Part shown: positions 9,356 to 59,832 of the stretch, piece after piece
How positions within the stretch are numbered: position 1 is the first letter of the stretch
How the letters are laid out: every line of letters begins with the position of its first letter
Notes under the pieces: generated by a model
What the model saw: the letters and a program-made list of their open reading frames with translations, nothing else
What the model was told of the DNA's origin: nothing
Databases searched by the model: none
NCBI GenBank assembly: GCA_016748015.1
Contig: JAAOMT010000352.1
Span: 310,001 to 374,000 of the forward strand
Origin: Geosiphon pyriformis uo1
Taxonomy: Eukaryota; Fungi; Glomeromycota
Length of the DNA: 64,000 bases
Reading direction: 5' to 3'
Position numbers and translations under genes: made by a program

Positions 9356-10024
9356 TGTTACAGTTGAAATCTATACTTTTTATTAATTATTACATTTATT
9401 AGCCATTGATGTCACATAAATTAGTCACTCTATTTTTAGAAATTGATCATTGACTTGATCAATGATCTGACTGTTAACCTGATCATTAATCACTTTTGAC
9501 AATTATATAAGCAATGAATCTCTTAGCTGTAGAAAAGCATGAAGAAATCAAGAAAATCAAATAAATAAAATAACAACTTTCATTTCAATTTTTCTTTTAT
9601 TGCTAATTTTCCTTTCCTTACCTTTAAGTATCTGAACATCTTAAAAAATAAAAGATTACTTGTTGGCATTTATCTACTCTTTTCCTGAAATGTATAAGTA
9701 TAGCATTTGAAGATTATTGAATAAAACGTGACTGAAGAGCACATCTGATACTTGATATTAAATTCTAAGAGTGTCAATATGAGACATACAATTATACCAA
9801 GTGTAATCATTTGTTGACAGTACAAACTATTTCTCTACCTTCAGATTCCCCAGTTACCCTTTGAAAAAAATAGTAACTAAGATATTTTATGAGATTGATT
9901 TCACACATTGAATCTATACTTATTCAATTCACTCTTTGAAGTTGAATTCCTTTTGATTATTTCCATTACCTTACAATCCTGTTCTCTCTTGCTATCCATT
10001 AGCTTGTTACTCCAACTCGTAACA
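9356..10024 (+). repeat. 3' LTR of A1
   Basis: Direct repeat of 1566-2233, preceded by the PPT. Confidence 0.95.
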
Positions 10025-10431
10025 CTATGAAAAGATATATTTTCTTAAAAAAAGAAGCTCTTCTTTTATACAACTTGTTGTAATACTAGTCTTTAAACTT
10101 GTACTTTTCTCTTTGCTACAATTTGGATGAACTAAAAATACATTTCAGCAAACTACAAGTTATTTCACTAAACTATTGATTATTTCGACCAATTTTTATT
10201 AATTTCAGTGAATTTTGATTATGTTAAATGGTTCAGAGTATTGTGTAATTTGATCATCTTAATTTTTAGAATACAAATCGGATTATTGATTGAGTAATAA
10301 TATTTGATAATTTGATTAAATAATAAGTGATAATCGAAATAATAATAATATATGCTAATTAATAATAGGAATTATGAGGGTAATTTTATGCTAATTGATA
10401 GCTAATTTCTACTAATAACATAATCTCCTCC

Positions 10432-18323: not shown

Positions 18324-19281
18324 TATTACTGGAGGTTTTTGGTCTCTTTTTTTGAATGTTGTTAATGCTGATTTGCTGTGAATTTACGTTCTCAGGAAGT
18401 AGTTGAACCTCCAGTAACTGAATTTATCTTCAAATTATCTTTTATAATTTGAACCACTGGGCTTATAAGTAGAATGACCAATTCCTTGCCAATTATTTTA
18501 TGTGGTTATGTTGTAGTAAACATCAACTTTTTTCCAGTGATTGTTTGTCTGGAAGCTCACTAAAATGTGTAATTACTTTGCTGTGAAAGTCAACTCTTCT
18601 ACAGAGATCTTGTCTATAGGCTACCCTAATGATTATGATAAAAAAAGAAAAAAAATAAAAGAAATGTAAAATTCTAACAAGGAAAACGTTTTCTATCCAG
18701 GCTTGAAGTCACTAACAGATTACTGAAATTGGTAGTTAATCAATTTAAAAATGTTAGTTGTGTTGAGAGAATTTCAAGTGCAATAATCAAAGGATTTGGT
18801 TTTTGAATATTTAATTTTTATTTAAATGTGTAAAAGATAATTTGTTCTAATTAAGATATCTAAAATAAAGTACTATGATAAGATACTATGAGAAGATATA
18901 TTTTCTTGAAGAGAGAAGCTTTTCTTTTATATAACTTGTTGTAGTACTAGTCTTTAAACTTGCACTTTTCTTTTTGCTACAATTTGGGTGAACTAAAGAT
19001 ACATTTTGGCAAACTACAAGTTATTTTACTGAACTATTGATTATTTCGCCCAATTTTTATTAATTTCGGCGAATTTTGACTATGTTAAATGGTTCAGAGT
19101 ATTGTGTAATTTGATCATCTTAATTTCTAGAGTACAAATTGGATTATTGATTAAGTAATAATATTTGATAATTTGAATAAATAATAAGTGATAATTGAAA
19201 TAATAATAATATATACTAATTAATAATAGGAATTATAAGAGTAATTTCATGCTAATTGATAGCTAATTTCTACTAATAACA
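18324..19281 (-). repeat. 5' LTR of B1 (958 bp)
   Basis: Matches the split 3' LTR; adjacent to the PBS remnant. Confidence 0.92.
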
Positions 19282-21998: not shown

Positions 21999-22986
21999 TG
22001 TTACCAGACAAAATTAGAGATATCATTTAGCATGAAACTATCTTATAATTCCTATCATTAATTAGCATATATTATCGTTTCAAATTATCACTTACTACAT
22101 TAGCAAAAATGTCCAAAATTATCATTTAATTAATAACCCAAATTGTACACAACACAAATGTAACCTAATTGCGATGATCAATCATGTAATACCCCAAACT
22201 ATGTAACATTCAAAAGTTCGCTGAAATTTATAGAAATTCGCTAAAATAATTGATAGTTCACTGAAATATCTAATAGTTCGCAGAAATAACTTGTAGTTCG
22301 CCGAAATGTATTTTGAGTTCAGCAAAATTGTAGAAAATAGCAAAGTTCAAGTTTATAGAATAGTGTTACGACAAGTTGTATAAAAAAAGAGCTTCTCTCT
22401 TCGAAAAAATGTATCTTACCTTAGATTTATCACTTAGAACCATTCCTACATACACAAAAGAAATAAATATCAAATAATTCAAAAAACCAAATTCTTTAAT
22501 TATTACACTTGAAAAATCCCCAAAACTTAACTAACGTTTTGAAATTGATTAGCTACCAATTTCAATAAACTGTTAGTGACTCCAGACCTGAATTGAAAAT
22601 GTTTCTCTTGATAAAATCCTATTTCTTTTACATTTCTTTTATTTTTCTTTTTTTTTTCTTTTCTTATTACAATCATTAGGGTAGCCTACAGACAAGATTC
22701 CTGTAGAAGAGTTGACTTTCACAGCAAAGTAACTACACATATTTTTAGTGAGCTTCCAGACAAGCAATTCTTGAGAAAGAGTTGACGTTTACTACAATGT
22801 AATTACATAAAATAACTGGCAAGGAATTGGCCATTCCACTTATAAGCCCAGCAGTTCAAATTATAAAAGATAATTTGAAATTAAAATTCAGTTACTGGAG
22901 ATTCAACCACATCCAGAAAACGTGAATTTACAGCAAACAAGTATTAACAACATTACAAAAAAGAGACCAAAAAACCTCCGGTAACA
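21999..22986 (+). mobile_element. Solo LTR of family B (988 bp)
   Basis: TGTTACC...CGGTAACA; TSD ATGT at 21995-21998 and 22987-22990, inside A0. Confidence 0.93.
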
Positions 22987-30019: not shown

Positions 30020-32004
30020 CTTAAATTGCTACTACATAATTTACTATGTCTCAAATTTGGAAAATAAGTTTTTTGCAAAGACACTTTTAATTATAATAAA
30101 TTACTATTATTACAACAAACTTAAAAGTATCTAATATTAATACCAACAGTAAAATAACAACAGTTATGCAAAGAAGTACAAATAAAAAAACTATTAACTG
30201 TAAAAACCAAGTAGAGGGAAACATAACTTCCATTACAAGAAAAGAAGTAAATATTACAATTATACAAAATTTAACAACAATAGAAACTATAAAACCTATT
30301 ACACTTACATTTAGATTTAAAACTATTAATAGACTGTTTAGAAATATAAACACAAGTAATAGAGACAACACACCTTTTAAAATAGTTAACACATCAAAAA
30401 AAACAGCTCTACATAGGCAAACAGCAGACTTTTCTTCAATAATAGCCAACAGACTAAAAAAAAAACCAACAAAAAATACAGACACATTGGAAGAATAAGT
30501 GTAAAAAACTTAACTGAGAAATTTAACCAAGTAATTGAAAAAAACTTATCTAAAAACACAACTAATCAAACCAACAACTTTGTTTTGTAATCAATGTTTA
30601 ACAAAAAAAAAAATAGTAATAAATTCCAAATAAAACCATTTCTATGATCCACCAAAAAACTCTTTCTCTCCTATTTTTTATGACCACAACAAGAGCTAAG
30701 AGTAAAAAAGTTGCAAATATTATTTTTCCTATAGTAACTAATAAAGTTTCAACATGAAAAAGTTTTTCTGTTATTAAAGCAGCTAAACAAAACATTCTGG
30801 ATATATTTTCTTTAAAAAACATTAATGAAAAGCTGTCTTTAGTGACTTCTGGTTCATTCTCTTTACCTTTGGCTAAAAGTTCTTTTTCTGTCAAAGTTTT
30901 TTCAAAAAAACACACTCAGATTAGTTCCAGTATTGTCTCCATTACTTTAAAAAGCCCAAAGATTTTTAATAACAAACCAGTCAACAAGTTGGTTTTTTCT
31001 GCTCTCACTACTCTCACTACTATTACTACTACTACTACTATTACTTTACAAATGGCTTAAAAAGCCAAAAAGTCCAAAAAATAGCAGCAGGCACTCACAA
31101 CTGCTTTGGTAACACCAAATCCCAGATGAGATTTTGGAAAAAAATTTTTATAGCAGCAGTTAGCCTGCTTCCTAATATGAATAATAACAGTAACAGCACA
31201 TTATTTAAAATGAAACAAGATCATCCACTGGCTGTGTTGCCTAATGTGATATTTTCTGACAGATCATTATCTGTCATAAAAGCAAAACAATTCATTATTT
31301 TAGATGATTTCAAAGATTGGGCTGATCAGATGGAAATGAAATTAACTGCTCTTCTTCTAGTTTTTGGTACTGCTGATAATAATGCTTGGATAAATCTGAA
31401 TTGTCATTAAAAATTCTTTGAATAGATGGCTTTTACTTTAATGTTTGGTGCAATATGTAAAATCAAAATGGCTTTGCTTAGTTTTTTGTTTCAGTTACTG
31501 CCTAGTTGCATTGGGCTTAAGTCTGTTTCACGAGATGCTGTCAAGTTGTTCTGTGTGAAATTTGCATCTCAGAAGAGTCTAAATAGTGTCATCAAAGTGG
31601 CTATTAATAATGAAGTTTTTTTAACCACTCTTAAAATTGCACAGTCTTCTGGTGTAGTCTTTGTTTCTTCTCCCTCTTTGTTATTTGCATTTTGTAATAT
31701 ATCTTTGGGTACTTTTTCTGATGACATCAAAGCTGTTCTTGGCATTTTTAGTATTATCACTTTTGTTAAGTTGAAGCCTGCTAGTCTATGGCAATATGTT
31801 GTGGTTCAATTCAAAAATATTTTTTCTGCTGCTCTTACTTACTGGTCTGTTCTGGTTAAGAAAGACAATATTAAAATTCTTTTTGTTGTCAACCAAAATG
31901 AAGTTATTTCTATAAGAAATGTTTTTAAAACTAAGTTGATCAATCTTTTTTTTGGCTGTACTGCCTTTGAAATAAGTAATTTGGTTTTTCAAGTTGGTAG
32001 CCAT

Positions 32005-32780
32005 TGTTACTTATAAAATATAGAAAATATATTAATATATAAATTAGCCAATCAGAAGTAAGCATAGTAAATGTGGAATTCCAGGATTCTCATATAAAGA
32101 ATTACAGAATTTCAAGATTCCAGAATTTCTGGTGTGAAGAATTGAAGAATTGAGGAATCTTAATTATATATATAACAGTAGTATTAAAAGCAGAAAAAAA
32201 AATTCCTTAGTTAGAGATCTTTCAGTTTAGATTTGATCTAAACAATCTTTCACATTACAATTATTAATAAATAACTATTTGTTATCTTAATCTACTCTCC
32301 ACTATTAACACTACATGTTGATAATAATTGCTACTTAACTACACTAGAACAATAGTTCTTGATTATGGCTATTGATGGGATACTAATTTACAAAATGCCT
32401 TGGCTTATTTTATTTTTTTTATTTTTTTTATTTTTTTTTTATTTTTTTGTTGTGTTTACTAATTGATTAAAGATTAAGTACTGAATTACTAATGTCAAAG
32501 ATTGTCTGGTAAAAGACTCCTACAAATGGGTAGAACACATAAAAAGAATTACGGATTACTTACCAGAGGATTGCTGGCCATTATGCTGAGAAAAGAATTA
32601 ACAGAATTGTGATTCTGGGAAGCTATGGATAACAACTATTAAATCTTTGTCTATTATATAAAAGACTCCACCAAAACCTTCAGAGTTATAACACTTCCAG
32701 CAACCAATATTAATTAAGTCATTGAGCACCAGATTACAGATTTGTATTTGATTTGAAATTCCAAATAATCACTTGTAACA
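32005..32780 (+). repeat. 5' LTR of C (776 bp)
   Basis: TGTTAC...GTAACA; GGAATTCC-type repeats at ~32071-32160; TATA at ~32165. Confidence 0.95.
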
Positions 32781-32801
32781 TTTGGTGCTCTCTGTGAGGT
32801 A

Positions 32802-35800: not shown

Positions 35801-38800
35801 TCAATTGTAGCAAGAAATTGTTGTTAATGAGCACATGCTGTGATGACAATAAGGAATACCAAATGACAACCAAGTTTTACTGTCACCCATGTATCATAAA
35901 ACATTTTGGAAGACCAAAACAAATAGGAAAATAGGATAATAAATCCTGCTTGGCTTGTAGAGAAACTCTTCTAAACAAAGAAATGTGAAATGACATTCCT
36001 GGATGAAGAAAAACATGCAACAAATCATATTAGTACATGATTCTCATAAGTAACTGAATTAGAAAAGGAACACCTATAGATGTTGTTTGGAGACAAGCAG
36101 TCAAATACTTGGATAGATGTTCCCATGATGACGATGAAATTTGGTGAATGGCTCTTGCCAAAATTGAAAGAGCATCACCAAAAAAAATAAAAAAAATAAA
36201 AAACAATCTACCAGAATCTATAGAGCTTAACTGGAACTCAGAACCAGTCATAAATCTACTGGATCTAGAACAATTTCACGAACATTATTAGGAATTAGCA
36301 TCCACTAGAGAAGAACAAAAGCAATGGTTGGAAAAAATCAACACTCGACTATGTAACCATTGTTTGATTCCTTGTGACTTTTAATATTGTAATGAATATG
36401 ATCTCATTTACAATCCACCACTATACATGATTTACACAATTCCAGAGGAAAACAAACCAATCAGCCACTGTACATCAGAATCGGGATCAACTTTCAATCC
36501 TAATTCAAACTCTGACCATGATGACAATAAAAACAACAGTTCCAGCTCTGTGCAAAATAGCAATGAAAACAACAATGATTTGAACTCCAATTCAAATCCC
36601 AAAATATATATCATGCTTTCTGATCTCACCAAGAAGCAAGTACAGAAATGGTTTAGTAATAATAACAAAAATATCATGTCTGAATGCACACATGATACTG
36701 ATGCAAGATTTGATTTAAGATATCCAGAAAAAGATGCCATCAAATTGGAACCACATTCATGCACATATATTGATCTCAAAGTAGCACTGGAAATCTCAGC
36801 AACAATAATGGTTCAATTAGCATTTAGAAATAGCTTAGCAAAAAAGGGAATCAACATCAGAAAAAGAATAATTGACACAGGATATGTAGGAAATATCATT
36901 GCTATGTTACAAAATGACTCTAAAAAAGCCTATATTATAGAACCAAATAAAAAGATAGCACAGGCAATATTTCTGCCTTTGGTAAAAATAGCTCAGTTAG
37001 TTTCAGTGGAAAATAGGAAGGAATTAGGGATTATAGCTAAAGGGATATAAGGATTTAGATCTATAGATAGAATAGATATAACAGTCAATATGGAAGAAAA
37101 AAAAATTGTTGACAAAAAAAAAATTATCTCAATTCATCAAACAATTTCTATTTCACCATATGACCAATATATGTTAGCCATAAAAAAGAAAGTAAAGAAT
37201 CAAGCTCAGTTGTTTGAAGCAAAAGCCACCATTTGTGAATCAGAAGAGATTGGACTCATTAATCTTTACATATCAGCCAAAAGCCCCAAAAACATCAAAA
37301 TTCTCATCTACAACAACACAGGAAGAGTCATAGACTTACCAAAGGAACCATTATTGAATATCTAAGCACAGAAGTAGAAAACCAACCACCAAACTCTATT
37401 TCAGACTTTTTACAGCTTTGTGGATATGTCAACATCACATCACAAACAATTTACGAATAAAGTGAATGTTATTTGCTCCAACCAAAACAATTAAAACAAA
37501 TGAATATAAGAAACTTAGATTCACTTCAATAGATACAACTCAAGATGTTACTCAACAAATTCAATAATATCTTTGTCAGCAAAAATGAATTTGGCAGAAC
37601 TGACATCATCCAGCATTAGATTAAAACTGAAGATGCAATGTCAATTAAACAAAAAGCATATAAAGTACCACCAGCCAGCCATGAGATCATTTGTCAAGAA
37701 ATCAATCAAATGCTTGACAACAGATTAATTTAACTATCAATGAATCTATGGTCATCACCAGTGGTACTAGTCCATAAGAAGAATAAAAAAATCCACTTTT
37801 GTGTGGATTACTGGAAATTGAATGAAGTGACCAAAAAAGATAGCTATCCAACACCAAAGATTCAAGAGCTGTTTGATGCTTTTGGAGAAAAGAAATGGTT
37901 CTTAACTTTAGACTTAGATAGCAGTTACTGGCAAGTAGCCATGAAACCAGAAGATAAAGAGAAGACAGCTTTTACAATACAGGAAGGAAATTTTGAGTTT
38001 AAAGTCATGCTATTTGGCTTGATGAATGCTCCAGCAACATTTCAATGACTTATGAAAATCATTTATACTAGACTACTGTGGAAATCAGTAGTTGTTTACT
38101 TAGACAACACCAATGTGTTCTCCAAAACATTCAATGATCATTTACATTATCTCTAACAAGTATTTAAAAAACTCAGAAAAGCAGGATTGAAATTAAATGC
38201 AAACAAGTGTTTCTTTGGAAAAATGGAACTTAAGTTTTTGGGACATGTTGTAAGCAAAAATGGTATCAAAACAGATTCAAATAAGATTGAGATTGTTAAG
38301 AACTTTTCAGTACCAAATAATCTCACAGAATTAAGAGCATCCTTGGAATTTGTTGGATACTATTACTGCTTTATCAAAGACTTTTCCAAAATAGCTTAGT
38401 CACTACACCAACTCCAAACAAAGAACACCAAATATGAATAAACTGAAACTCAACAAGAAGCTTTTAATACATTAAAAAAAAGCTTATTAAAGCCTCAGTA
38501 TTAATCTATCCAGATTATAGCAAGCCATTCATAATCACAACTGACATATCTAGTTAAGCATTAGGAGCAGTACTATCACAAAAAAGTCCAGATGGAAGAA
38601 AACATCCAATAGCATATGCCAGCCGAAGTTTGAGTCCAGCTGAAAAAAACTATGGAACATCAGCACTAGAACACTTAGCAATCTATTGGGCTGTTATCAA
38701 ATGGAAAGAATACTTGAATCAGAAGTTTGATGTATATACTGATCACAAAGAATTAACTTCAATCCAGAAGCAAGAATTCAGAGATGATTACTATGTCAAA

Positions 38801-38930: not shown

Positions 38931-40306
38931 ATGAATATACAAAAATACCACCAACTACAATATTATATAAATACCTAATTGTTCAAGAAAAAATTATCTC
39001 AAAAAGAACAAAAAAACATAAAACAACAATCAAAATATTTCATCAACCATCAAAATATACTTTACCAGAAGAACAGAAGAAATCCAGATCACTCAACCAG
39101 AGTAATTACAGAACCAAAGAAAAAGACAATATTATTCAACATACACTCAAATCCAACAGCAAGACATTTTCATAAAAAAGCAACCATAAAAAGAACCAGA
39201 GAAAGATATTATTAGCCATCAATGTATTCAGACATCATTCAATATGTTCAAAATTGTGATACTTGTCAGAAAAGAGGAAAAACAAAACTCAGTGAACCAT
39301 TAAGACCAATCAAAATAAAACAACCATTCAATCATATTGGAATTGACTTAGTCGAATCATTAACAATTACCAGCAGAGGCAACAGATTTATTGCAGTAGC
39401 CATGGATTATCTTACTAAATGGCCAAAAGCAAAAGCCATTCAAAGAGCAGATGCAAAATCTGTTGCCAAATTTGTTCATCAAGATTTGATCTGTCAACAT
39501 AGATGTTCAAAAAAATTATTATCTGATCAAGAAACTCACTTTCTGAACAGAATACTAACAGAATTAAGCCAAAGATTTGGAATCAAAAGACCATTATCAT
39601 CACCATATTATCCACAAACCAATGAATTAGTAGAAAGATTCAATAGAACACTGTGTGAAGCAATTGCCAAGATCAGTTAAGAAAACCAGGAAAAATGAGA
39701 TTTGTTTATATCATCAGTATTATTGGCTTATCAAACAATAAAACAAGATACTACACAAACAACACCATTTAAATTAGTATACAGTAGAACAGCAATCTTA
39801 CCAGTTGAGATAAAGGTCAACACATATTCAACTGAACCAATAACAGAAGAGAATTTCCAAGAAACTTTGTTGAGAAAAATATATGACTTAATGAAAATTC
39901 TAGAAAACAAACAATAAAAAACAGCTAATAACATACAACAGTCACAAGAAAAACAGAAAAAAAGACATGACAACCAACTACCAAATAAACCAGTTGAATT
40001 TAGAATTGAAGACAAAGTACTTCTACATCATGCCAAAATAGAAAAACAATGGAGTGGAAAATTTGACCCCAAATGGGATGAACCATTTTACATAAAAAAA
40101 TTCTAGGAAATGGAGCTTATAAATTAAGATGGAACAACAAAATCTTAGCCAAAGCAGCACATAGTAATTGATTGAAACCATATCACCAGATAGCATCATC
40201 ATCTACCAATAATATTCCACAACTGGGAGTACAGTGAATACTAGTCCAACCAGATGAGATTCCATGAGATTTGGAACCAACCATAATCATCAGACCAAAC
40301 ATGTAA
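38931..40306 (+). pseudogene. C integrase, separate ORF with its own ATG
   Basis: MNIQKYHQL... start; IHSNPTARHFH...CDTCQKRG; PFNHIGIDLV; MDYLTKWP; YPQTNELVERFNRTL. Confidence 0.88.
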
Positions 40307-40365
40307 AATAAACAATAAGAAGAGTATATAAAGACATGGTAGATGTAACAGAAAACATCAGAAAA

Positions 40366-40992
40366 ATGGAAATTACTGACAACATTCACTCACTAGCACA
40401 ACAATTCTTCTAATTGATCCAACAACAAGAAATGAAAATCACAATCAATCAACAAACTATCAGATACATTAACACCAAAAAAAGACCACAGAATAAAGTA
40501 CAGAGAAAAACAGAAGACATGATTGACAAAATAATTGCAAAAGTAAAACAGACAATAGAAACACAACTCAAAGTCACCCAATATTAAGAGTTGACTATAG
40601 AAATCTGGAATGGTGGATACAACAATTTCCAAGAAACTTTTGTTACTTTTACTTGGGACAACACATAAATATTTAGAATCTATACATGGATAAAACAAAA
40701 CAATTATTTAATACAACAATTGGAACAATTTGTGGGAAAAAACAATTTAACTACACAAGCAAAAGCCATTTATTGACTACATACCAGATTTCAAGATTGA
40801 CCAGAAATCTTGCTTAACACTGAAATGGACATTGTTACTGTTAACCAAATGAGAAAAATAACCAACACCCAATTTGAAGAATTACAGAACAAGATAACAC
40901 AAATAATTCTCAAAAAAGAAGTTCAAGAACTATTCAAGAATGGAGAATTAGAGCTAAGAGATTTGGGAAATCTCGATGAAGCTCAATATTAA
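40366..40992 (+). pseudogene. C ORF3 (non-env accessory ORF, ~208 codons, single frame with several internal stops)
   Basis: MEITDNIHSLAQQFF...KITNTQFEEL...LDEAQY*; TATATAAA at 40325-40332; ends at the PPT. Confidence 0.75.
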
Positions 40993-41005
40993 AAGGAGAG
41001 AAAAA

Positions 41006-41823
41006 TGTTACTCATAGAATATAGGAAATATATTAGTATATAAATTAGCCAATTAGAAATAGGCATAGTAAATGTAGAATTTTAGGATTCTTATATGAGG
41101 AACCACAGGATTCCAGAATTCCAGGATTTCTCTTAAAGAAATTACAGAATTCCAGGAATCCCAAGATTTCTGGTGTGAAGAATTGAAGAATTAAGGAATC
41201 TCAATTATGTATATATAACAGTAGTGTTAAAAGCAGAAAAAAAGAATTTCTTAGTTAGAGACCTCTCAGTTTAGATTTGATCTAAACAATCTTTCACATT
41301 ACAATTATCAATAAATAACTATTTGTTATCTTAATCTACTCTCCACTATTAACACTACATATTGATAGTAATTGCTATTTAACCATACTGGAGCAATAAC
41401 TCTTAATCATGGCTATTAGTAAGATATTAACTTACAAAATGTCTTGGATTATTTCTTTTTTTTATTTTTTTTATTTTTCTTCTCTTTTTTTGTTGTGTTT
41501 ACTAATTGATTAAGGATTAAGTACTGAATTACTAACATCAAGAATTGCCTGGTAAAAGACTTCTGTAAGTGGATAGAACATGTAAAAAGAATTATGGATT
41601 ACTTACCAGAGGATTGCTGGTTATCACACTGAGAAAAAAATTGACAGAATTGCAATTCTGGGAAGCTACAAATAACAACTATTAAATCTCTGTTTATTAT
41701 ACAAAAGACTTCACCAAAATCTTCAGAGTCATAACACTTCCAGCAACCAATATCAATCAAGTCATTAAGCACCAGATTATGAGTTTGTATTTAATTTGAG
41801 ATCCCAAATAATCATTCATAACA
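41006..41823 (+). repeat. 3' LTR of C (818 bp)
   Basis: Direct repeat of 32005-32780 with an extra block of the GAATTCCAG array. Confidence 0.95.
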
Positions 41824-42894: not shown

Positions 42895-44421
42895 GTATGA
42901 ATTTAATATACAAGATCAGTTTCATAAAATATCTTAATTGCTATTTTTTTTAAAAAATAACTGAAAAATTTGAAGATAGAGAAATAATTTATACTGTTGT
43001 TACCAGTAGAATTTTAGCTATTAATTAGCATGAAATTACCCTTATAATTCCTATTATTAATTAGTATACATTATTATTAATTCGATTATCACTTATTATT
43101 TAATCAAATTATCAAATATCATTACTCAATTAATAATCCAATTTGTACTCTAGAAATTAAGATAATCAAATTACACAATACCCTGAACCATTTAACATAG
43201 TCAAAATTCGCCGAAATTAATGAAAATTCGCCGAAATAATCAAATAGTTTAGTGAAATAACTTGTAGTTTGCCGAAATGTATCTTTAGTTCACCCAAATT
43301 ATAGAAAAGAGAAAAGTACAAGTTCAAAGACTAGTACTACAACAAGTTGTATAAAAGAAGAGCTTCTCTCTTCAAGAAAATGTATCTTCTCCTAGTATCT
43401 TAACATAGCATCCTACTTTAGATATCTTAATTGAAACAAATTACCTTTTACATATTCAAATAAAAATCAAATATTCAAAAACCAAATCCTTAAATTATTA
43501 CACTTAAAATTCCCTCAACACAACTAACGTTTTTGAAATTGATTAGCTACCAATTTCAGTAATCTGTTAGTGACTCCAGGTCTGGATAGAAAACGTTTCC
43601 CTTGATAAAATTCTATTTCTTTTACATTTTTTTTATTTTCTTTTATTTTTTATTATAATCATTAGGGTAACCTACAGACGAGATTCTTATAGAAGAGTTG
43701 ACTTTTACAGCAAAGTAACTACACATTTTTAGTGAGCTTCCAGATGAGCAATTTCTGGGAAAGAGTTGACGTTTACTACAACATAACTACACAAAGCAAC
43801 TGGCACGGAATTGGCCATTCCACTTATAAGCCCAGCAGTTCAAATTATAGGAGATAATTTGAAAATAAATTCAGTTACTGGAGGTCCAACTACTTCCTAG
43901 AAACGTGAATTCACAGCAAAACAACATTAACAACATTCAAAAAAAGAGACCAAAAACCTTTGGTAACACTGTTAACAAATGATAATACATTAGTATAATT
44001 CTATGTCTTATATTGGTATTTATAGAATTTAATATTAAATATCAGATATATTCTTTAGTCACATTTTATTCAATAATCTTTAAATATTACAATTATACAA
44101 GTCAGAAAAAAGATAGATAAATGCCAACAAGTAATTTTTTATCTCAAGATATTCAGATACTTGAAAGTAAGAAAAGAAAAATTAGCAAAAAGAGAAGAAT
44201 TAAGATAAAGTTATTATTTTATTTTTTTGATTTGTATATGCTTTTTTACAGTTAAGAAATTCATTATTTATATAGCTATTGAAAGTAGTCAATAACCAGA
44301 TCAATGACTAAGCCAATAATTAAGTCAATAATTACTATCTAAAAATAGAGTGGCTAATTATATAACATTAGTGGCTAATACATATAATAACTAATAAAAG
44401 ATATAAGTTTTAATTGTAACA
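42895..44421 (-). repeat. Truncated family A LTR (possibly the 5' LTR of A000), split by a solo B LTR
   Basis: 42895-42997 plus 43973-44421 match 29273-29877; ends GTAACA at 44421. Confidence 0.85.
42998..43968 (+). mobile_element. Solo LTR of family B (971 bp)
   Basis: TGTTACC...GGTAACA; TSD CTGT at 42994-42997 and 43969-43972. Confidence 0.93.
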
Positions 44422-45257
44422 ACAATATAGCACAATAATAATTTTAGAAAAGTAATAATTAACATAGTAGCAAGTACTATTTTACAATAATAACAAGTAC
44501 CAGTTTGTAATAGTGGTCAATATTAACTGGTAATAGCAGCAAACACCAAGTTAAAATATTAAAAAAAAAGTATTATAATATGTTTTCTCATAAAACTACA
44601 AACATATATATAGATAGCAGCTTTAATATTGAGAAAAACAATAAATCATAAAACAAGTCATAAAAAAAATCATAAAAACAAATTATTAAACAATTTATTC
44701 AACAGTTCCACTTTAATTATCTTTTAGTTTTTATTTTTAAAATAAATATTCACAAAAATTTTTAATCAAAAAAAAATAAAAAAATTGTTGAAACTAAATT
44801 ATCATAATTTAAAGTATTAAGAAACTTATTTGTATTATTTATTGAATAAAACTATTATTTATCAGCTGAATTTCTTAAAAGAATAATCTTTAATCAAGAT
44901 TATTTATGTTGTTACTAATTGATAAAAGCTTTATTGTAAGAATTAAAAAAAGTATTAAAAACCATTAACATTTTTGTTTCTAAATTAGAGAAATACATTA
45001 AGCAATTGCAAAGATAATCTTAGAAAAAACCTCAAACAATAGGTAGATTTCAGTTTAGTCTTTAAAAAAAGTATATAAATATAAACAACAATTAGAATTA
45101 AGAAATAACTTATATTATGACATTAAAAAAAAGCCTTCAGTATAAATATTAACATTATTACACAAATAGAATTGAGGAATTCACAAGAGACTAATTGCAA
45201 TTAAAATGGAATATTAATATTTAATATATCAAGAAAATCATCCCATAACAATAACAA

Positions 45258-45738
45258 TTTACCTAGTTTTTTGGTCATCTTATTACAAAAGATAAAATCT
45301 TTTCTAATTCAGTCAAGATTAAAAAAAGTTCAAATTATTAAACAACTAATAAATATTTATGAATTATGCTCTTTTCTTGGTTTAATATCTTATTATTAAA
45401 AGTTTGTTAAAAATTTCTCCAAAATCACTTTTTTGCTTAATTAACTATTCAAAAAAACTGTCAATTATTACTAAAGCATATATTAGCAAAAAATTTTTAA
45501 AACTCTAAAATAAAAACTAGTTACTAAACTAATTCTTATGTAATCTGATTTAAATCAATTTTTTATTCTTTATATTAATGTATTTAGCTTAAGACTTGGT
45601 GTTGTTTTCTCTTAAAAAGATAAAAATAACAAAGAGCATATTATAGCTTATACCAGCTGATTATTTTTCTTAGCAGAACAAAACTACTTAATTACTAAAC
45701 AGGAATGTTTAACAGTAGTATAGACTATTAATTATTAA
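45258..45738 (+). mobile_element. Heavily decayed family A RT/RNase H fragment
   Basis: Colinear with ~5834-6310, with pervasive C>T/G>A changes. Confidence 0.75.
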
Positions 45739-46304
45739 GAGTATATAATATAAAATAAAATAAATAAAATAAAAAAAAAAAAAATTAGTATTATATTAAT
45801 AGCTATAAATAAAAGCTGTTAGTTTAGTATAATTAAGTAGTAGATGTTATTAACATAAGTTGCTAATGAAATTAGAGAATAATAATTTTAATTTAATAAA
45901 AAAAATAACATAAATTAGATAATAAAACAATACTTTTATTTGATATTTGGATAATTTTACTTTAAGATATAGAAAACTATTTTTTAAAGAAAGAAATATG
46001 TCAGAAATATTTATTGTTAACTAGTTAAAAACTTGTTTAAGTTTTTTTTACTTTTAATACTATTGCTATATATATATATTTTTTGTTATACAAGATCTTA
46101 TACATTTTTATTTTTTTTTATGCTATTTTCTAAAACTGTTTATTTTTGAGCAAGTTGCCATAATTTTTTGGAAATATGTTCAATTTTTATAAATGTGCAC
46201 ATTTCTGAAAATATGCTTACATATTGAGTATTATTTTTTTATTAATTTATTCTTATAATTTATCTTTTTATTTTTTTCTTGTATTCTTTTTTTATAAATA
46301 ATAC

Positions 46305-48590
46305 TATCTATTAGACTGTAATAAAATAGAAAAAATACTTGAGTCAAAAATTTGATATATATATAAACTACAAAGAATTAACATTAATTTAGAAGCAAAA
46401 ATTTGAAAATAATTATTATACAAAATAAAATAGAATTATCATAATTTAATTATACAGTATATTATAAAAAGAAAAAAAAATAGAAATACCAATAGTTTAT
46501 TCAAAATGAAACAAATTTAAGAACATTTTAACACCAAAAATAAGTTAAAAGATAAATATACAAAAATATTAACAACTTTAATATTATATTAATATTTAAC
46601 TGTTTAAGAAAAATTATTTTAGAATAAACAAAACAATATAAAACAATATAAAACAATTAAAATATTTTATTACTTATTAAAATATACTATATTAAAAAAA
46701 TAGAAAAGAACCAAACTAATTACTTAAAGTAGTTACAAAACCAGAAAAGAATACAATACTATTTAATATATATTTAAAGCTAACAACAGAATATTTTTAT
46801 AAAAAATCACAATTAAAAGAACTAAAAAACAATATTATTAGTTATTAATATATTTAGACATTATTTAATATGTTTAAAATTGTAATGTTTATTAAAAAAA
46901 AAAGAAACAAAATCTAGTAAACTATTAAGACCAATTAAAGTAAAACAATTATTTAATTAGATTAGGATTAATTTAATAAAACTACTAACAATTATTAATA
47001 AAAACAATAAATATATAGCTATAGCAATAGACTATTTTATTAAATAGCCAGAAGTTAAAGTCATTCAAAGAACCAATACAGAAATAATAGCAGAATTTAT
47101 GTATAAAAAACTAATTTGTTATTATAAATGTCTAAAAAAATTATTATTAGACCAAAAAACTTATTTTGTAAATAAAACATTAATAAAATTAAGTCAAAAA
47201 TTTGGAATTATTATTATATTATCTACAAATAAATAACTTAGTTAAAAAGTTTAATAAAACATTATATAAAACAATTACCAAAATCAGTTAGAAAAATCAA
47301 GAGGAATAGAACTTATTTATGCTATTAATATTATTTGCTTATTAAACAATAAAACAAAATATAACTTAGACAATACTATTTGAATTGTTCTATAATAAAA
47401 CAGTAATACTATTAGTTAAAATAAATATTCAAACATATTTAACTAAACCAATAATAAAAGCTATCTTTTAAACAATATTGTTATAAAAAACATAATTTAA
47501 TAAAAACACTAAAAAATAAATAAAAAAAGCAGCCAATAATATTTAAAAGTCACAAAAAAGATAACATAATAACTAGTTATTAGATAAACCAGTTAAATTC
47601 AAGATTGGAAACAAAGTATTTTTATATTATACTAAAACAAAAAAATAATAGAATAAAAAGTTTGATTTCAAATAGAATAGTTTATTTTATATTAAAGAAA
47701 TTTTAGAAAATAAAACATACAAATTAAGATAGGACAATAAAATTTTAGCCAAAGCAATATATAGTAATTAACTTAAATTATATTACAACAGAATATTATT
47801 AATTATTAATAATATTCTACAATTAGAAGTACAAAAAATACCAATTAAACCATATAAAATTCCACAAAATTTGAAACTAATTATAATTATTAAAGCAAAT
47901 ATATATATTAAATCAGATATAAAGACCCAATACATATAACAAAAAAAAACCAAAAAAAAAATAAAAATTACTGATAATATTTACTTTATTATACAACTAA
48001 ACATAAAAATTACAATTAATAAATAAATTATCTAATATAAAAACACAAAAAAAAACAAGAGCTTTAAAATAATTAACAATACTAAGTACATCTATTATCT
48101 AAAAATATAGTAAATAAAATAATAAAAAAAGTAAAAACAGTGTTGAAAAATCTAATAATGACTATAGCATATTAGAAAATAACCAAAAAAAATTGAAATC
48201 AATAAACATAATAATTTGCTAAAAACTTTTGTTATTACCACTTAGGAAAACAATTAAATATTTAAAACTTATATATAAATAAAACCAAATAAATATTCAA
48301 TCTAATCATATTACAATAGATAAAACAATTTGTAAAAAAAATAGCTTAATTACATATACAAGAGCAATTTACTGCTTACAAATAGAATTTTAAAATTATT
48401 TAAAAATATTGCTATATTTAATAATATATACAATAACAATTAACCAATAATAAAAAATTATTAATGTTCAGTTTAAAAAATTACAAACCAGAATTGACAA
48501 TGTAATTCTAAAAAAAAAGTAATAAAGTTAATTTAAGAAAAAAACTTAAAAGATTTTAACAGAGCTTAATATTAAAAAAAAATATTATTA
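46305..48590 (+). mobile_element. Heavily decayed C-like RNase H end, integrase and ORF3
   Basis: Colinear with ~38680-41005; extremely AT-rich. Confidence 0.75.
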
Positions 48591-51564: not shown

Positions 51565-52963
51565 ATGAGTTCCTTGGAAGGGCATCAATCTGAACGAAAA
51601 ACCGATACTAAGGAAGCAGCCGCAAACTTTTGGCAAGGTTTTCAAAAGGAACGAGAAGGTTACGCCTTTAATGTTTTTCATTATCAAGAAAAGCTTATGA
51701 AAACTGTTCACATAGACCACATATTTGTTACACGATAAAATTAGCGATTCAACAAGCCCTCGCCTCACTCTATACCAAGCCAAAATCTTCAATTACTTTC
51801 ATTTGTGATAAAATATTGGAAAGAATCAATGACTTGGAAAAAAAGTTAACCGAGGCTACAATATACCTGCCGCCATATGATCAACGGCAATTGTCTTTGG
51901 TAAACTATAAAATTTATCTTTGATATTGCTTTTTGGAGGTGGGTTACTGCCTTTTTATGTATTAATCACTCGGTGATGAATCAAGCAAATAAAGTTTTTG
52001 ATTGACGAACTGAATACACAGCGAGCATCATTAGCCCCAAAGAGCAAATTTTCTTTCAAATCTCGAAAAACAAGTGGGATTTCTGGGGCTACTATTGCTA
52101 GTGGTAATATTCCCGAGACGAAGAAAAGTCAAGAGAAAACAGCAACTATAATCAAAGCCCCTGTTACTACCACCATAAATGCTACAACAGATCCTAACAT
52201 TCGAATAATAACATTGGATAATAGGCAGAATTCCTTACTTTTTATTAATTCTTATATACCATTATCAATGAAATTGGACGATGTTAAGAAAACTGGGGGA
52301 ATTTTAGATTTTCAACTTTCCAATTTATCAAATTGTATTGTAAATTTGGTGAGTCCCAAAGTGATTATTGGTGCCATACAAATCAAGGGATTAAAAAATA
52401 CTTTAGTGGTGGCTGGACCAGTTGCGAGCTCGATATTGATTCATGATTGTGAGCAGTGCGTATTTGTTGTTGGGTGTCATCAGGTAAATAAATTTTCTAA
52501 ATATACTTGAAATCAAATAAAATTTTTCATTCTATTTCATCTTATTTCATTCCAGTTTCGAATGCATGCCTCCAAAAAAATAACCATTTATTTACATGTG
52601 ACAAGTCATCCAATTATTGAAGATTGTCACGAAATTCAATTCGCTCCTTATACATTATTGCTTGATGGTTTGGAGAGTATGTTTAAGGTAAATGAGTGTG
52701 ATAAAAATGATTAAATTATTTCTTAAAAACTGAATTTGAAAAAATTTTAGGCTGCAAAACTGGACCCGAAAGTAAATAAATATGAAAAAGTGGAAGATTT
52801 TAATTGGCTCCGACAACAAGCTTCTCCCAATTGGAGTCTGGTCCCAGAGGAAAAATTACGTAAACAATGGCCAGCGTTGGTGGCTTCTGAAAATATTGAT
52901 CAAGAATCCAAGATAGTGACAGAAGACATTGTAGCTGAGATCCTCACAGACATTTTGGGGTGA
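51565..52963 (+). CDS. TBCC: Tubulin-specific chaperone C (tubulin-binding cofactor C, multi-exon)
   Basis: YLPPYDQRQ; LAPKSKFSFK; GPVASSILIHDCEQCVFVVGCHQ|FRMH; HPIIEDC; VEDFNWLRQQASPNW. Confidence 0.92.
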
Positions 52964-53297
52964 TATGTTTGAATTGGCTTTTTCAAAGGCTCTTTTTAAT
53001 TTTGGAGTCTTCTAGACAAAGCGATAAATATGTTTTATCATGCGACAACTTTATTACCTCTATAATTTTACAAACCAATATCAAATATTCGTTGACGGGC
53101 TTTCCTATTTCTAAACAAAAGTTGGACACTATGCTCTAATCTTTGACCCAATAAATTTGGGATCTATGCAGCCTCGATTAGGTGACCAAATAATACTCCA
53201 ATTCGGGAAATGCAAAAAAAAAAAAGATTGAAATATTGCTAATAAATCGAGACTAGACCTTTCCGCACTTCAAAATTCTCGAAAATTTTTATTTCCT

Positions 53298-55489
53298 ATG
53301 ACCTCCCTTAATGCTAAGACATATCCAGCAAACGTAGGGATATTAGCCCTCGAAATTTATTTCCCAAAAAGAGTAGGCAGCCCATTCTCAAGGACAAAAT
53401 GGATTCCTTCACAGTCTATTAAACTGATTCTGTTACTTACATTTAAACCCCAAGTGTGTCGTTCAAGCCGAACTCGAAAAACATGACGGGGTATCTACAG
53501 GAAAATATACTGTTGGCTTAGGACAAACAAAAATGGGTGTTTGTGATGATCGTGAAGGTGGTCTATTCTTTAAAAGAAAACCAATATTTTTTCTTATTTT
53601 TGAAAAAATTAAAATTTCAAAATCTCCATTACAATTATAGATATTAATTCCATCGCTTTGACAGGTGTGATCCTTTTAATAGGATGTTCTTTAATCAGTT
53701 CTACCTTATAAGCTAATAGCTAATAAAATCTTTACTATTTAAATGAATTGTAGCGGTACAAAATCTTGTTGAAAAATATAACATATCTTATAATGATATT
53801 GGTCGTGTGGAAGTTGGGACTGAAACAATTGGTAATTACTGTTATTTTAGCATCTCCGTTTTCTTCATTGGCCCTTTTTCAATTGTTTTATTTAGTTGAT
53901 AAATCGAAGGCTGTCAAAACTGTTTTGATGCAATTGTTCGCCGAATCTGGCAATACTGATGTCACAGGAATTGACACTACCAATGCCTGTTATGGAGGTA
54001 AATTAATTAGTGTTTATAAAAACATGAAGATCCTCATATATACAAATTTAATATTTCTCGATACCTTTGCTTCAGGTACGGCGGCTCTTTTTAATGCCGT
54101 CCACTGGATAGAGTCATCATGGTGGGATGGAAGATATGCACTTGTTGTTGCCGGAGATATTGCTGTATACGCGTCAGGACCGGCTCGTCCAACTGGTGGT
54201 GCTGGCTGTGTTGCATTACTTATTGGTGAAAATGCACCGATTTTATTTGAACGAGGTTATTTTCAATTTCATTTTAGAATCTCAAGGTTATTAGAAATTT
54301 GTGAGGTACTAGTTTAATAAATTTTCCAACTACATGACTCTCGAAATCTATATTAAAATTTCACGCAGGTCTTCGTGGAACCCATATGGAACATGTTTGG
54401 GATTTTTGTAAGATTCGCGTTAGCCTTATTCCGGTAAATTTTTGAGTTAATTGTTTAGTTAATGTGTGCATCTCATTTCACTTTGATTAGACAAGCCAGA
54501 TTTAAGCTCGGAATTTCCAGAGGTTGATGGGCATGTCAGTAATTCATGCTACCTGAAAGCACTAGATATTTGTTATAGTCGATATTGGGACAAACTCATC
54601 GCTAAAGTAATCCTTCATTTTCCTTATTAATCAAAATTATAATTTTGCTTCATCAGACAAATTAATTCCTTTTTGATTTTCTAGGGCCAATCTATTCTAC
54701 CAAAGCTTGATCATTTTGATTATATTCTATTTCACGCACCTTATTGTAAATTGGTTCAAAAGGCTTTTGGGCGTTTGTATTATAACGATTTTATTCGTCA
54801 TCCAGATCATGAAAAATATCAAAGTGTTTCGCAATATAAGGTAGACGCATTATTGGTAATTTTTCATCTCGATTTTTGCAAATAATTCTAATTTTAAGTA
54901 TTTCAGGACATCGAACCTGAGGTGTCTTTAAACTCAAAAGAACTTGAAAAGGCATTTGTTGCTCTTTCTGAAAGCGAATATACTAAAATGGTATTACCTA
55001 CATTACTACTTGCCACTCAAAATGGTAATATGTATACTGCCTCTTTATATGGCGCTCTTATATCGCTTTTGGCTACCGTGCCTTCTGATGATCTGGTTTG
55101 TATTATAAAATTTACCTATTATTTTATGCTCCAATAGTTACTGAAATCACACTATTCTTTAGATAGGAAAGCGTGTTGGGCTTTTTTCTTATGGATCAGG
55201 CTTGGCCGCAACATTTTTTTCTTTACAAATTATATCACCCATCACAAACATTGTTGAGCAACTTGATCTTCACAATCGCCTTGACTTGCGCGTTGAGTTA
55301 ACACCCGAACAATTTCAAGAAATAATGCGTTTGAGAGAGATGACTCATTCCAAAAAGGATTTCTCTCCGGTGGGTGACGGAACCCCTTTAAATGAAGCCT
55401 TCTTCGAGGGCTCCTACTATCTCGATCATATTGATGACAAATGGCGGCGTTCTTACAAACGAACGGGCAAAACTGTTATCGCCAGCTAA
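53298..55489 (+). CDS. ERG13: Hydroxymethylglutaryl-CoA synthase (multi-exon, includes a 24-nt exon at 53641-53664)
   Basis: [12 protein letters not shown]; GKYTVGLGQ; EVGTETI; catalytic NACYGGT; ARPTGGAG; [11 protein letters not shown]; [10 protein letters not shown]; FSYGSG. Confidence 0.96.
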
Positions 55490-55804
55490 GGGTAATATAC
55501 ATTTTTTTAAATTTAACCCAATTTTGAGGTTAGACGTTAAATAATGTTACGATATTATGTATTATATTTATCCCTCGAAATTTATCAAGAGGCCATTTGT
55601 ATAAAAAAGCTTCATTCGACCCAAAATTCCCAACCCCGATATTCACACTATCCTCGACAAGCAACCATTTGGGATCTTGAAAATACAATCAATTTTTTCG
55701 TTCTTTCGTTATATGAATAGGACAATCTAATTATTGTCAATGAATTTTGGCCAATGAAAATTCTATTTAACAAATTTTATAAATTGAAATACAATTACAA
55801 TAAA

Positions 55805-58687
55805 TTAACCAAAACCGTTTGTCTGAACTGGCATATCGAGAACTTTACGGCTCAAGGCCTTCCAATTTTCGTAAAGTTGTTGTGAAAATTTAAGTTGTTC
55901 TTGGGCAAAATTTTGATAAAGGAGTGAAATAAACATGGAACTTTTATGATATAATGATAGTTCGGCGTTTAAGCAATGGCGAACAAAGATTCTTCGTTTT
56001 TGTTGAAGATCAATATCTTCCTTATCCTTAAACCGTAGGAAGGTGCATGATAATGAAAAAATGATGTTGGCATGATTGTTCAAATGTCGAATGGGAAAAG
56101 ACCATTTGTGAAAATACCTTTTGTATGGCAGCTGATAATTTATCGACATCTTCCTTCCCTGATAAAGGCAATTTTGCCTCATTAGATGCTATTCGAGTGT
56201 TTAAGGTTGCAGTGGTATCCGTGGCGATCCTATCTCTTCTTTCTAACGTTTCCTAAAGGTAATGAATAAGAAATTTATAGCATTTAAAAAACCTTATGAA
56301 ACAAGAGTGCCATATCTTACCCGAAATGAAACTAATAAATCTCGGTGTCGTTTCAAATTCTCCAATACGTTTTCAAGAGTTGAAACAGCCTATATGACGG
56401 TTCAATTAATTATTGTGCGCGCGTTGTCCATCAAAAACTTGAATTAGTTTGTGTTTGCATACTTCTTCCTCTATAATTGCGCTAGCCCTTTGAACATGAG
56501 TAGAAACCTCTGTTAAACCGCTCACAACTTGTGAACAATTCGAGCCATCTTCGATGTCACATCCCTTTTCACTTTCAATCAACGAGCTAAGTTAAAAGAA
56601 AATTTGAAATGATTCAATATGGTATATTTAAACTATTTTGAATATATTGGAACTTACTTTAGTGCAAGTCCATAGCGCATATAATCAGTTGAGGTGCCTT
56701 ATTGTATTGTTAGATCAGTTTGGAAATGAGGATATCGAAAAAATTGTTAGGCGTGATTTAAGAACAATGATAATATACCTTCACGTCTGCGAGCAATTCG
56801 TTCCATTATATGGCACATGTTACGATAATGTTCGATAGCGCCAGTCAATTGAATTTTTAAAATTTTAAGCCTTTCATCCAAGTCATGAGGTATACGCCTT
56901 TCTATCTCAATTGGAATATGCTTCTTTAGGAATTCTTCCTCCAAATCGGGTGTATTTGTTTTACGCCATAAAGCTATTTCCTAGTTTTTGTCAACTTCAA
57001 ATAAACATTAATTGACACGGGATAAAAGATTAAAGGTGGTTTTTGGTAGAAAGGAATATCGTACTTGTTGCTCGGTTAAAAACATTGAAAATAGCTCATC
57101 ATCTTTTAAAACAGGATGCCTCGCGATAAAATTCAAAAAACGCGTAAGTCCTTTTCGGCGTTTCTCAAGAAATGATTCGTCGACTGTGAAATAAAATCCG
57201 TTGACTATTTTAGGATGAATTTTCATGTAGATGTTAACGTGCAGATTTGCAAAATAAACTGGTTACTGGAATATATGAAAATTTTACCGCCAATTTTTTT
57301 CGGCGGTAAGGAAGGTAAAATTCGAAACGGGTACTTTTTTACGAGACATTCCATCAACCACCAGAAATCGCTATAGCGCCTCAGAGCTTTTACACCATGT
57401 ACCTTTCAATAATGGTTTTTTGATTTTATAAAGAAGTAATTGTTTGATAAAAAAGAAAGCTGAAATATAAACTTATTTACCTGTGATTCTACTATATAAT
57501 TGACATGTTTGAAAAGGAAACCTTCTCTTTCAGGTGCAAATTTTACAGATATTGAATCCATATCTAGGCACCATTGAAATTCTCCCTTGTGTGCATAACT
57601 TCCTTTAAAAGTTATCTCTGTAGCAGCACTACTAGATTCCGGATATGGGGTAGTTTCATCTGAGATTCTCAAAGTTGGGACCGATGGTATTGGATTGGTT
57701 GATATTGATGTTGATGTTGAAGGCATAGCCCAAGGATCGGCTTCGAGTGGTGCTGAAGTAGGTGGTGAGATGGAAGGGACAGCAAGATTCCCGAAACTCG
57801 CTGACCGAAAATTAATGTTTTCCAAATTTGGAAGTATAGGTTCTGGTAAGTCTACATAAATAAAAGAATTTAAAAAGTGTATATTTTTAATTCAAAGCGT
57901 CCAACAGTTTAAAAATTTAAGAGATAGATTAGTTCAAGTAATTTTACCTTCTTTCCGCGATATTAGATTTTCGATAGACACATCTATAAATGAATATTTC
58001 ATTGTTTGTTAGATATTTTTAATGCCTGGAACAGAAAAGGAAATGGTTTAATAAGAGCATCAGGTCTTAATGAATGTGTACCCATATGCTTTTGGGCTAA
58101 TGCGACCAAGGCTAGAGCGGTATTAAATTCCCCTTGATTTACCCTTGTACTACTGGGTACGGTGAGATTCACTATCTGGGATAGTTATGATATCATCAAG
58201 CATATCCGATTAGAATTGAAAGTCAAAATGATACATAATAAATAATAAAAGACGTTCACCTTTTCTACTATATTATGTGGTTGCCCACTCACACCCAAAA
58301 TTTTATTTAAAGCAGAAATTGGGATCCTTCCAGCACTCGGGTGAGCAAGATTGAAAGCAGTTGAATATATTTCAGGTAAAACCACGTCGGCTATTCAAGC
58401 AATAACATTAAGTGAGGCAACTTTGAAAAAGTACAGGCTAGAAAAAAATTGAGGAAGTAGGGTTTTCGAGATAAAAAGCGAGGAATAAGGAATCTCACAC
58501 CTAAGATGTTGGAAGTTTCTGCCCCCTTAAGGGTTGAAGGTGGATCCCAAGGGTTTCCAATATTAAGGTTATCAACAAGAAAAGATCCCGATAAAGGAGG
58601 GTTAACATCAACAAGGTCGTTAACCGAGGTTGGCGTCGTTGTTCCAAAAAATGAAGTGGACAATTCGTCGTCGTCCATAATATCCAT
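55805..58687 (-). CDS. MVP1: Sorting nexin Mvp1/SNX8 (EH-like N-terminus, PX, BAR; multi-exon)
   Basis: [14 protein letters not shown]; [25 protein letters not shown]; [22 protein letters not shown]; helical C-terminus. Confidence 0.9.
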
Positions 58688-59832
58688 TTGAAAAATTAGT
58701 CTCTTTCGATAGGTTATTAGTAGTTCGACTAGACAATTCCCACCGTCAAAAAAGATAACTAATAAAAGTTTTATTTGTAGTCATTTGAAAACATGATATT
58801 TAAAATTGTATAATTTTATAAAATTACTGTCGTACAATTCGGTTATCTTTCTGAATACTGCTAGTAATGTGAGAAGGGTAAAGACTTACGTTAGTAAGAT
58901 GAATTACCCCTTCCCCTTGCTTGTGTTGCTACAGGTTTTACGAATTATCAACTATGTAGTGACAGTAGATTCTGCAGTTTTCTTTGAGACCTCCCATAAC
59001 TTCCAAAAGTAGTATCGAGAACAGGATTGGCATTGAATCAAAAATTTTTGTCCCAAAAAAATATTTTGTGATGATATCATTGAGGAAAAGGGTTCTTGCT
59101 GCATACCTATAGTCCTGCCAGCTACAAGAAACAAACAAAATCAGTTTATTATTGTGCACTGCATGCATTTGATGTTAAATGAGCTTGAAAATGTAACTTT
59201 TGCTGGGATAGATGGAAATTTTGAAATAGAAACTTGTGATTATTCCATGATTTCTTTGTTTTCAATTTTGCGATGCTCCAAATTCAAAAAATTTCTATTC
59301 GAAATTCTCATGCAAATGTGCCATTAATGGACTTTTCGAGGCTTATTAATTTTAAAAAAGTGATCTGTTTTCCTTGCATTACCCATTTATTGACGGTTTA
59401 TGTGTTCAGTAACTATTTAATTCGTAAACAAAAGAAACTTCTCAAATTTTGACTTGGTATTGGGGTAAACCTGAATAAAATCTATAATGACGATCACCTT
59501 GAATGTCAGAAAATCACTTAAATTTTATTTACATTGCCTAAAACTATTCATAATTCAAATTTAAGCCTTCATTAGCATTTATAACTCTACTTATCCGTGA
59601 AGAAATCAGTTCTTAAGATCTTGAAAAAAACTCATCTATATCAAAAAGTATGCAAAAGCTCACTTGTCAATCGTTATCATTCATTAATATATACATGGTA
59701 AATATCAACATGCGTGATGTTAAAGTTTGGAAAGGAATATTGACCAATAATAAAATTTTGCATACTTCATTTTACATTCTAACCAGGATCCTTGTTTCAA
59801 TGTATGATTCCCAGGCTGGCTTTTTTTCTTTC

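Follow-up and report, generated by a model that had tools for sequence, protein, structure and literature searches.

A fast-diverging accessory ORF downstream of integrase in Ty3/Gypsy LTR retrotransposons of Geosiphon pyriformis

Introduction

What is encoded between the integrase gene and the 3' LTR of the retrotransposons at this locus of Geosiphon pyriformis, and what might the product do? LTR sequence makes up 41.2% of the genome of this fungus according to the accessible text of PMC11952901, and PMC7264820, in its accessible part, describes it as an open question what the extra ORFs of LTR retrotransposons do. The window, i.e., the whole stretch of 64,000 nucleotides that was analysed (contig JAAOMT010000352.1, positions 310,001 to 374,000), carries three elements, designated A, B and C, each of which had been annotated with an ORF of ca. 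210 codons 3' of integrase.

Results and Discussion

Host elements

The window consists of an AT-rich nest of LTR elements and, after it, host genes; A, B and C were defined by self-comparison of the window and inspection of the ends. All three have LTR ends of the TG...CA type and a target duplication of 4 bp, as well as a primer-binding-like site and a polypurine tract (PPT); Pfam scans gave the pol order RVT_1, RT_RNaseH, Integrase_H2C2, rve (Ty3/Gypsy order), and Gag was seen in C upstream of pol (Retrotrans_gag and Ty3_capsid). By paired LTRs, duplications, primer-binding site, PPT and domain order, A, B and C are Ty3/Gypsy LTR retrotransposons. Pfam scans of the integrase ends of A, B, C and the metagenomic contig L001 (see below) returned no chromo family, and membership in the chromoviruses was rejected on this ground.

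Element A (+ strand) has its 5' LTR at 1566–2233 (CTAT duplication; repeats of 12-bp period at 1654–1699), paired with the 3' LTR at 9356–10024, and its PPT at 9345–9352. Element B (− strand) has its 5' LTR at 18324–19281 (self-comparison, end inspection), its PPT at 10433–10424 and a 3' LTR split in two (10420–10025 and 1565–1001) by element A, which sits inserted inside it. Element C (+ strand) begins with a 5' LTR at 32005–32780 (primer-binding-like site at 32783; duplication CCAT/TCAT) and ends with the PPT at 40993–41005, directly before the 3' LTR at 41006–41823 (TG...CA; short repeats at 41110–41171). A dUTPase domain was found upstream of RT in C (36385–37050, + strand; Pfam E 2e-12) and in B (14519–15085, − strand; Pfam E 2e-14).

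Several further features of the nest were recorded. B-type solo LTRs lie at 8252–9045 (ATGG duplication; within the accessory ORF of A), 21998–22984 and 42994–43959; the nesting is mutual and repeated, with a B-type solo LTR inside A and A inside the 3' LTR of B. On one strand, each of the 4-bp duplications at 1562–1565, 32001–32004, 8248–8251 and 19282–19285 is either CTAT or CCAT, which suggests a target-site preference. The primer-binding-like sequence TGGTGCTC is common to positions 2240, 32783 and ~18321 and is not of the initiator-methionine type; the primer may be a threonine tRNA. Element remnants at 45255–48519 have a GC content of only 16–19%, far more AT-shifted than the adjacent copies, and judged by composition this looks like heavy C-to-T decay; RIP was reported as undetected in related fungi in the accessible part of 10.1101/2021.03.30.436303. 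Host gene exons adjoining the nest (51980–61001) encode a tubulin-binding cofactor C domain, HMG-CoA synthase and an SH3-domain protein.

Integrase frame and accessory ORF

A stop codon directly after RNase H was observed in 5/5 junctions, i.e., at 6510–6512 in A, ~12690 in B, ~38895 in C, ~46430 in a second C-like copy and 772–774 in L001, and the integrase frame of A, C and L001 has an ATG of its own. From the arrangement of the frames, integrase thus appears to be a separate ORF in these elements, which is unusual for Ty3/Gypsy elements. In C it occupies 38931–40237 (+ strand; Pfam Integrase_H2C2 and rve; tblastn 38946–40192), and its 3' end may reach ~40300. The first-pass annotation had counted the accessory gene as a third ORF; an extra ORF after integrase is indeed present, but the count is too low by the integrase frame.

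The ORFs, 210–240 codons long, were confirmed at the expected places in A, B and C, in sense orientation and 3' of integrase, and all copies in the window are broken. The C ORF (40336–40992, + strand, ~215 codons) has an ATG at 40336, a second ATG at 40366 and its stop at 40992; it is decayed, the family frame being broken by five stops, and it has two frameshifts, with a middle segment of ~35 codons in another frame. In the B ORF (11109–10401, − strand), a member of the 221/239-aa family, there are two stops, and the frame shifts once, near 10656. The A ORF (7932–9386, + strand) starts with ATA and is interrupted by the B-type solo LTR at 8252–9045; tblastn of the A member P0242 matched its 5' part (7932–8251, family residues 1–107) with 80% identity and its 3' part (9048–9386, residues 107–218) with 79%. 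A second C-like ORF, heavily decayed, follows its own integrase remnant (46910–47786) at 47946–48519 (+ strand). The position between integrase and PPT, as originally proposed for all three, holds exactly for C alone; the frames of A, B and L001 extend past the PPT and enter the 3' LTR, which in B starts at 10420.

The modal length of the A members is 218 aa (20/99), and modal lengths of 221 aa (26) and 239 aa (16) were found among the 120 B members listed; at 30% GC, an open frame as long as 210 codons is expected by chance with p ~3e-8. On both counts the frames are not due to chance. A pol piece lies upstream of the ORF in 35 of the 36 gene models that hold both (391 models examined). As to the models themselves, many from G. 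pyriformis (P0006–P0299) are chimeric, with integrase or unrelated sequence spliced onto the accessory ORF, and some skip its stops via false introns.

Homology among the elements

Alignment of the B and C profiles gave hhalign E 8.2e-6 and probability 83.6 over 184 columns, with z 10–17 over shuffles, and by these profiles the B and C accessory ORFs are homologous; DNA similarity between them is absent beyond short words. A search of 1.84 billion representatives with the B+C profile returned 112 matches at E 0.001, including further subfamilies 26–46% identical to B or C. The origin of 10 matches was checked: 8 are from G. pyriformis, and 2 (P0332 and P0335) are metagenomic, with intact frames and from unrelated lineages. 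The named homologs are all from G. pyriformis (C 75/75; A 99/99; B 120 listed of 141), and at least 294 'hypothetical proteins' of this species are copies or chimeras of the accessory ORF. The contig L001, which carries P0335, shows RT-RNase H, stop, integrase, 316 bases, the intact ORF, PPT and, from position 3116, the LTR in this order; its integrase is 52–53% identical to those of B and C and 40% to that of A (tblastn), and it represents a separate lineage with the same layout as the window elements.

The first-pass annotation had claimed homology in all three elements. This is established for B and C, whereas A is a probable member whose direct profile tests were not significant; the N- and C-terminal patterns quoted in its favour do line up at matching positions when the sequences are aligned. 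That the A ORF is unrelated and merely occupies the same slot is unlikely, although a number of results point that way: the local profile tests of A vs B/C gave hhalign E 0.24–0.37, HMM scoring placed the 20 full-length A members at −1.3 to 2.9 bits, inside the shuffle range, there are 0 A members among the 112 profile matches, 9/20 A copies fail to beat 99% of shuffles, and the link depends mainly on one lineage, P0335/P0396, against which another A member, P0242, gave nothing. On the other side, P0335 aligns with the A member P0214 end to end, at 24% identity across 216 aa and with E 2e-4 (this pair was the top one of 25 tried), and 11/20 A members beat at least 198/200 shuffles, whether or not the last 25 residues were included; A members score 34–85, and 222 real control windows reach at most 40. 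The global profile alignment of A is collinear and stands at z ~4 at two of three score shifts, the signal being gone at the lowest, 0.25; its score was exceeded by 0/300 shuffles and is above 86/86 real-protein windows (partly overlapping), also without the PPT-coded tail. The integrase of A is likewise an outlier (38–40% identity vs 52–54% among the others). Because of the end-to-end alignment with the metagenomic P0335, the A ORF is, on sequence grounds, quite probably homologous to those of B and C.

Divergence and selection

The description as fast-evolving was upheld: identity of the ORF is 14–30% between lineages where that of integrase is 38–54%, which indicates a protein that is constrained but changes fast. 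A dN/dS test had also been suggested, and purifying selection was detected on one DNA pair only, C vs its decayed copy at 47946–48519. For this pair dN/dS was 0.33 over 168 codons (integrase 0.36); since the +1 shifted frame also gave 0.42, a consequence of the strong AT shift of the copy, the value is in part due to mutational bias. Transversion-only counting, which avoids most of this bias, found changes at 6/15 fourfold sites vs 20/185 second positions (p 0.006; small sample), and the same test in two shifted frames gave p 0.68 and 1.

Composition and predicted structure

The non-env character of the protein was supported by hydropathy and size in 8 representatives. The best 19-residue hydropathy was 0.27–1.33 (single mutated A copies up to 1.79), and by this measure no transmembrane helix was found in the 8 representatives; nor was a signal peptide (the highest 12-mer value within residues 1–30 was −0.44 to 1.30). 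The same representatives have 0–2 cysteines and 200–239 aa. No viral fusion protein was listed at E 0.001 in BFVD or PDB, and none was found in Pfam.

An AlphaFold2 model of the B/C family (45 diverse rows) was obtained with pLDDT 80 and pTM 0.65, with low confidence at residues 41–51; an earlier model from B rows only was poor (pLDDT 44). In the predicted layout a small alpha-beta-beta head is joined by a basic linker, modelled as disordered, to a helical body whose final helix is long. The most basic 15-mer falls at residues 33–63 in 8/8 representatives; as whole proteins, P0335 (pI 5.4) and P0332 (pI 5.9) are acidic. The motif basic-X2-5-PY, the consensus of the PY-type nuclear import signal, occurs in 14/42 B members and in 7/9 members of other subfamilies, and in 0/20 A and 0/19 C members.

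No family member scored above any cut-off in Pfam, PHROGs or NCBIfam. The best E in a PDB sequence search was 0.23 for B/C, with none for A; ESM Atlas gave low-recognition leads only for B and nothing for A; tblastn gave no match in phages, and viral contigs no match for P0332. Foldseek returned no match at E 0.001, the N-terminal head being hardly covered by the fold searches. Structural scores are to be read against the noise level of the tool, which extends up to Z 8 and, for helical proteins, to ca. 13; the best hit, a designed protein, had Z 4.7, which is below it. ParB-family DNA-binding domains aligned with model residues 78–207 at Z 3.3–4.3 (rmsd 3.2–5.2, 59–96 aligned), likewise under noise, among them Spo0J 1vz0 (Z 4.3, rmsd 5.2, 92 aligned) and KorB 1r71 (Z 3.5, rmsd 5.1, 96 of 114 aligned), both against the helical body; with a second, low-confidence model Orc6 came top at Z 6.9 (under the noise level), and ParB was absent among 50 rows. 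The resemblance of the modelled helical body to the ParB family is accordingly kept as a lead.

Two candidate identities found no support in profile comparisons. A ParB/KorB helix-turn-helix gave hhalign E 0.38–0.54 to HTH_ParB/KorB profiles and z −0.9 to 1.2 vs shuffles (positive control ParB vs KorB, z 7–12), and DUF1016_N (PF17761) reached 13 bits vs a cut-off of 32.8 bits (E 0.11, 1/14 members; hhalign E 0.19); the profiles were built from 29 ParB, 4–5 KorB and 74 DUF1016 segments.

Proposed function

The accessory protein is tentatively regarded as a nuclear factor, likely binding the DNA of its own LTR, a reading to which we give somewhat less than an even chance. The product would be a soluble protein of predicted helical build that enters the nucleus, imported presumably through the basic linker, and whose helical body may bind DNA; occupancy of the element's own LTR would raise transcription or hold off host silencing, with LTR targets that are probably specific to each family. 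We infer DNA binding from the basic linker of the model together with the sub-threshold fold resemblances. Family-specific LTR targets would explain why the protein drifts far more than integrase despite kept length and layout, and an LTR-directed factor would agree with a soluble helical protein that has a basic linker, with rapid drift alongside lineage-specific LTRs and with silencing pressure. Short repeats, differing by family, are present in the 5' part of the LTRs of A, C and L001; such repeats are common in LTRs generally. In a 7-mer test they were not significant (10/200 shuffles at best), and the B LTR shows none. Transposon methylation and small RNAs are present in a related fungus, as described in the accessible part of 10.1101/2021.03.30.436303. 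The nuclear-factor, integrase-adaptor, RNA-binding and host-protein readings can overlap.

In the main rival reading, which is somewhat unlikely, the protein would act as a partner of integrase, bringing the separate enzyme into particles or the nucleus, or standing in for a chromodomain as its tether to chromatin. With the RNase H/integrase stop in 5/5 junctions integrase probably does not travel as a Pol component, the integrase ends (A, B, C, L001) are devoid of a chromodomain, and the accessory gene is the next one 3' of integrase; on the other hand, the accessory protein diverges much faster than integrase. When P0335 and the C-terminal half of the integrase of the same element were modelled as a complex, folded without an alignment, the score was 0.40 vs 0.00 for the best control (runs 0.41, 0.00 and 0.40; contacts agreed to at least 23%, and the pLDDT of the partner was no lower than 63), which lends the idea weak support. 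The mark applied was reached by 51/78 solved and 2/108 mismatched pairs, and 7/44 blind neighbours passed; passes with scores up to 0.60 comprised 5/78 solved pairs and all 4 passing mismatches (of 180), so that by this calibration a pass at such a score is more often wrong than right.

Binding of element RNA in the manner of Rev, with a role in export, packaging or translational control of the integrase frame, is quite unlikely; the disordered basic linker and helical body of the model would suit it, and the polycistronic layout needs translational or splicing control, but no RNA-binding fold rose above noise, the best being the NS1 RNA-binding domain (Z 5.4, low-confidence model). Slightly less likely still is an action on host proteins (the silencing machinery, or inter-nuclear movement in the shared hyphal cytoplasm) that involves no nucleic acid binding. 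Fast divergence suits such targeting, and accessory transposon proteins of Arabidopsis are described in the accessible part of PMC13547354 as having a higher dN/dS than the core enzymes and a larger number of predicted contacts with the host; however, no host partner was suggested by any analysis here. That the ORFs are env-like genes or non-functional leftovers is highly improbable, for although the slot is that of env and the window copies are all broken, hydropathy, the 0–2 cysteines and the size of 200–239 aa speak against env, and the selection signal on the C pair and the intact frames of P0332 and P0335 in unrelated lineages speak against leftovers.

The nuclear factor directed to its own LTR stays the preferred reading. 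A more far-reaching combination may be formulated, in which a Ty3/Gypsy lineage of an early-diverging fungus would have turned into a complex retroelement with integrase expressed apart from Pol, and would use an ancient accessory protein of new fold as a dedicated DNA-binding cofactor of integrase that carries the enzyme both into the nucleus and onto its targets and drives the LTR expansion of this genome; taken as a whole it is quite improbable.

Comparison with known systems

The family offers several diverged, naturally intact proteins (P0335, P0332, and B and A members) and a confident model, and its candidate partners are at hand (own LTR, own integrase); the function of an extra ORF is therefore directly testable. 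For annotation, it follows that the 'hypothetical proteins' of G. pyriformis counted above are transposon gene copies or chimeras.

Small, fast-evolving accessory genes in the 3' region, sometimes overlapping the LTR, are known from foamy viruses (Tas/Bel) and lentiviruses (Nef, Tat, Rev). The Geosiphon ORF resembles these in its 3' place and fast change, as a functional analogy only, no link in sequence or fold having turned up; the same applies to VANC of the VANDAL transposons, a fast-evolving accessory protein covered in the accessible part of PMC13547354.

Bdelloid rotifer LTR elements carry a sense, non-env ORF3 after pol in dUTPase-bearing lineages; as far as the available text of PMC5408684 goes, these ORF3s are GDSL esterases or DEDDy nucleases common to unrelated retroelements, whereas the Geosiphon protein appears to track the integrase lineage. 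An enzymatic ORF3 of this type was rejected for Geosiphon, with no GDSL or DEDDy match in Pfam and a helical model. Parallels within fungi are the dUTPase-bearing Gypsy elements for which an 'add. ORF' is given in a figure legend of PMC2864245; the likeness extends to the fungal Gypsy host element, the dUTPase in pol (B and C) and the extra ORF, but those elements bear a chromodomain and come from other fungi, and the likeness of the extra ORFs is one of description.

The accessory ORF was not found described in the literature, and the G. pyriformis genome paper, Repbase, Dfam or supplements may hold it. In plant Ty3/Gypsy elements, additional ORFs occupy the stretch from pol to the 3' LTR, such as Grande gene23, Retand TRP28 and the env-like ORF of Athila (PMC7264820, PMC11963269). 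By the accessible text of these sources, the Geosiphon ORF is like them in being family-wide, in the same slot, with no clear database match and with a nuclear or DNA-binding role proposed; it is unlike them in being fungal, sense, devoid of a transmembrane helix and overlapping PPT and LTR in several lineages. The Retand type (antisense, TRP28) was rejected, the Geosiphon ORF being sense and matching neither PF04195 nor any other Pfam family. Taken together, the ORFs in this window represent a real and apparently undescribed accessory-protein family, of a kind known from plants, rotifers and some fungi.
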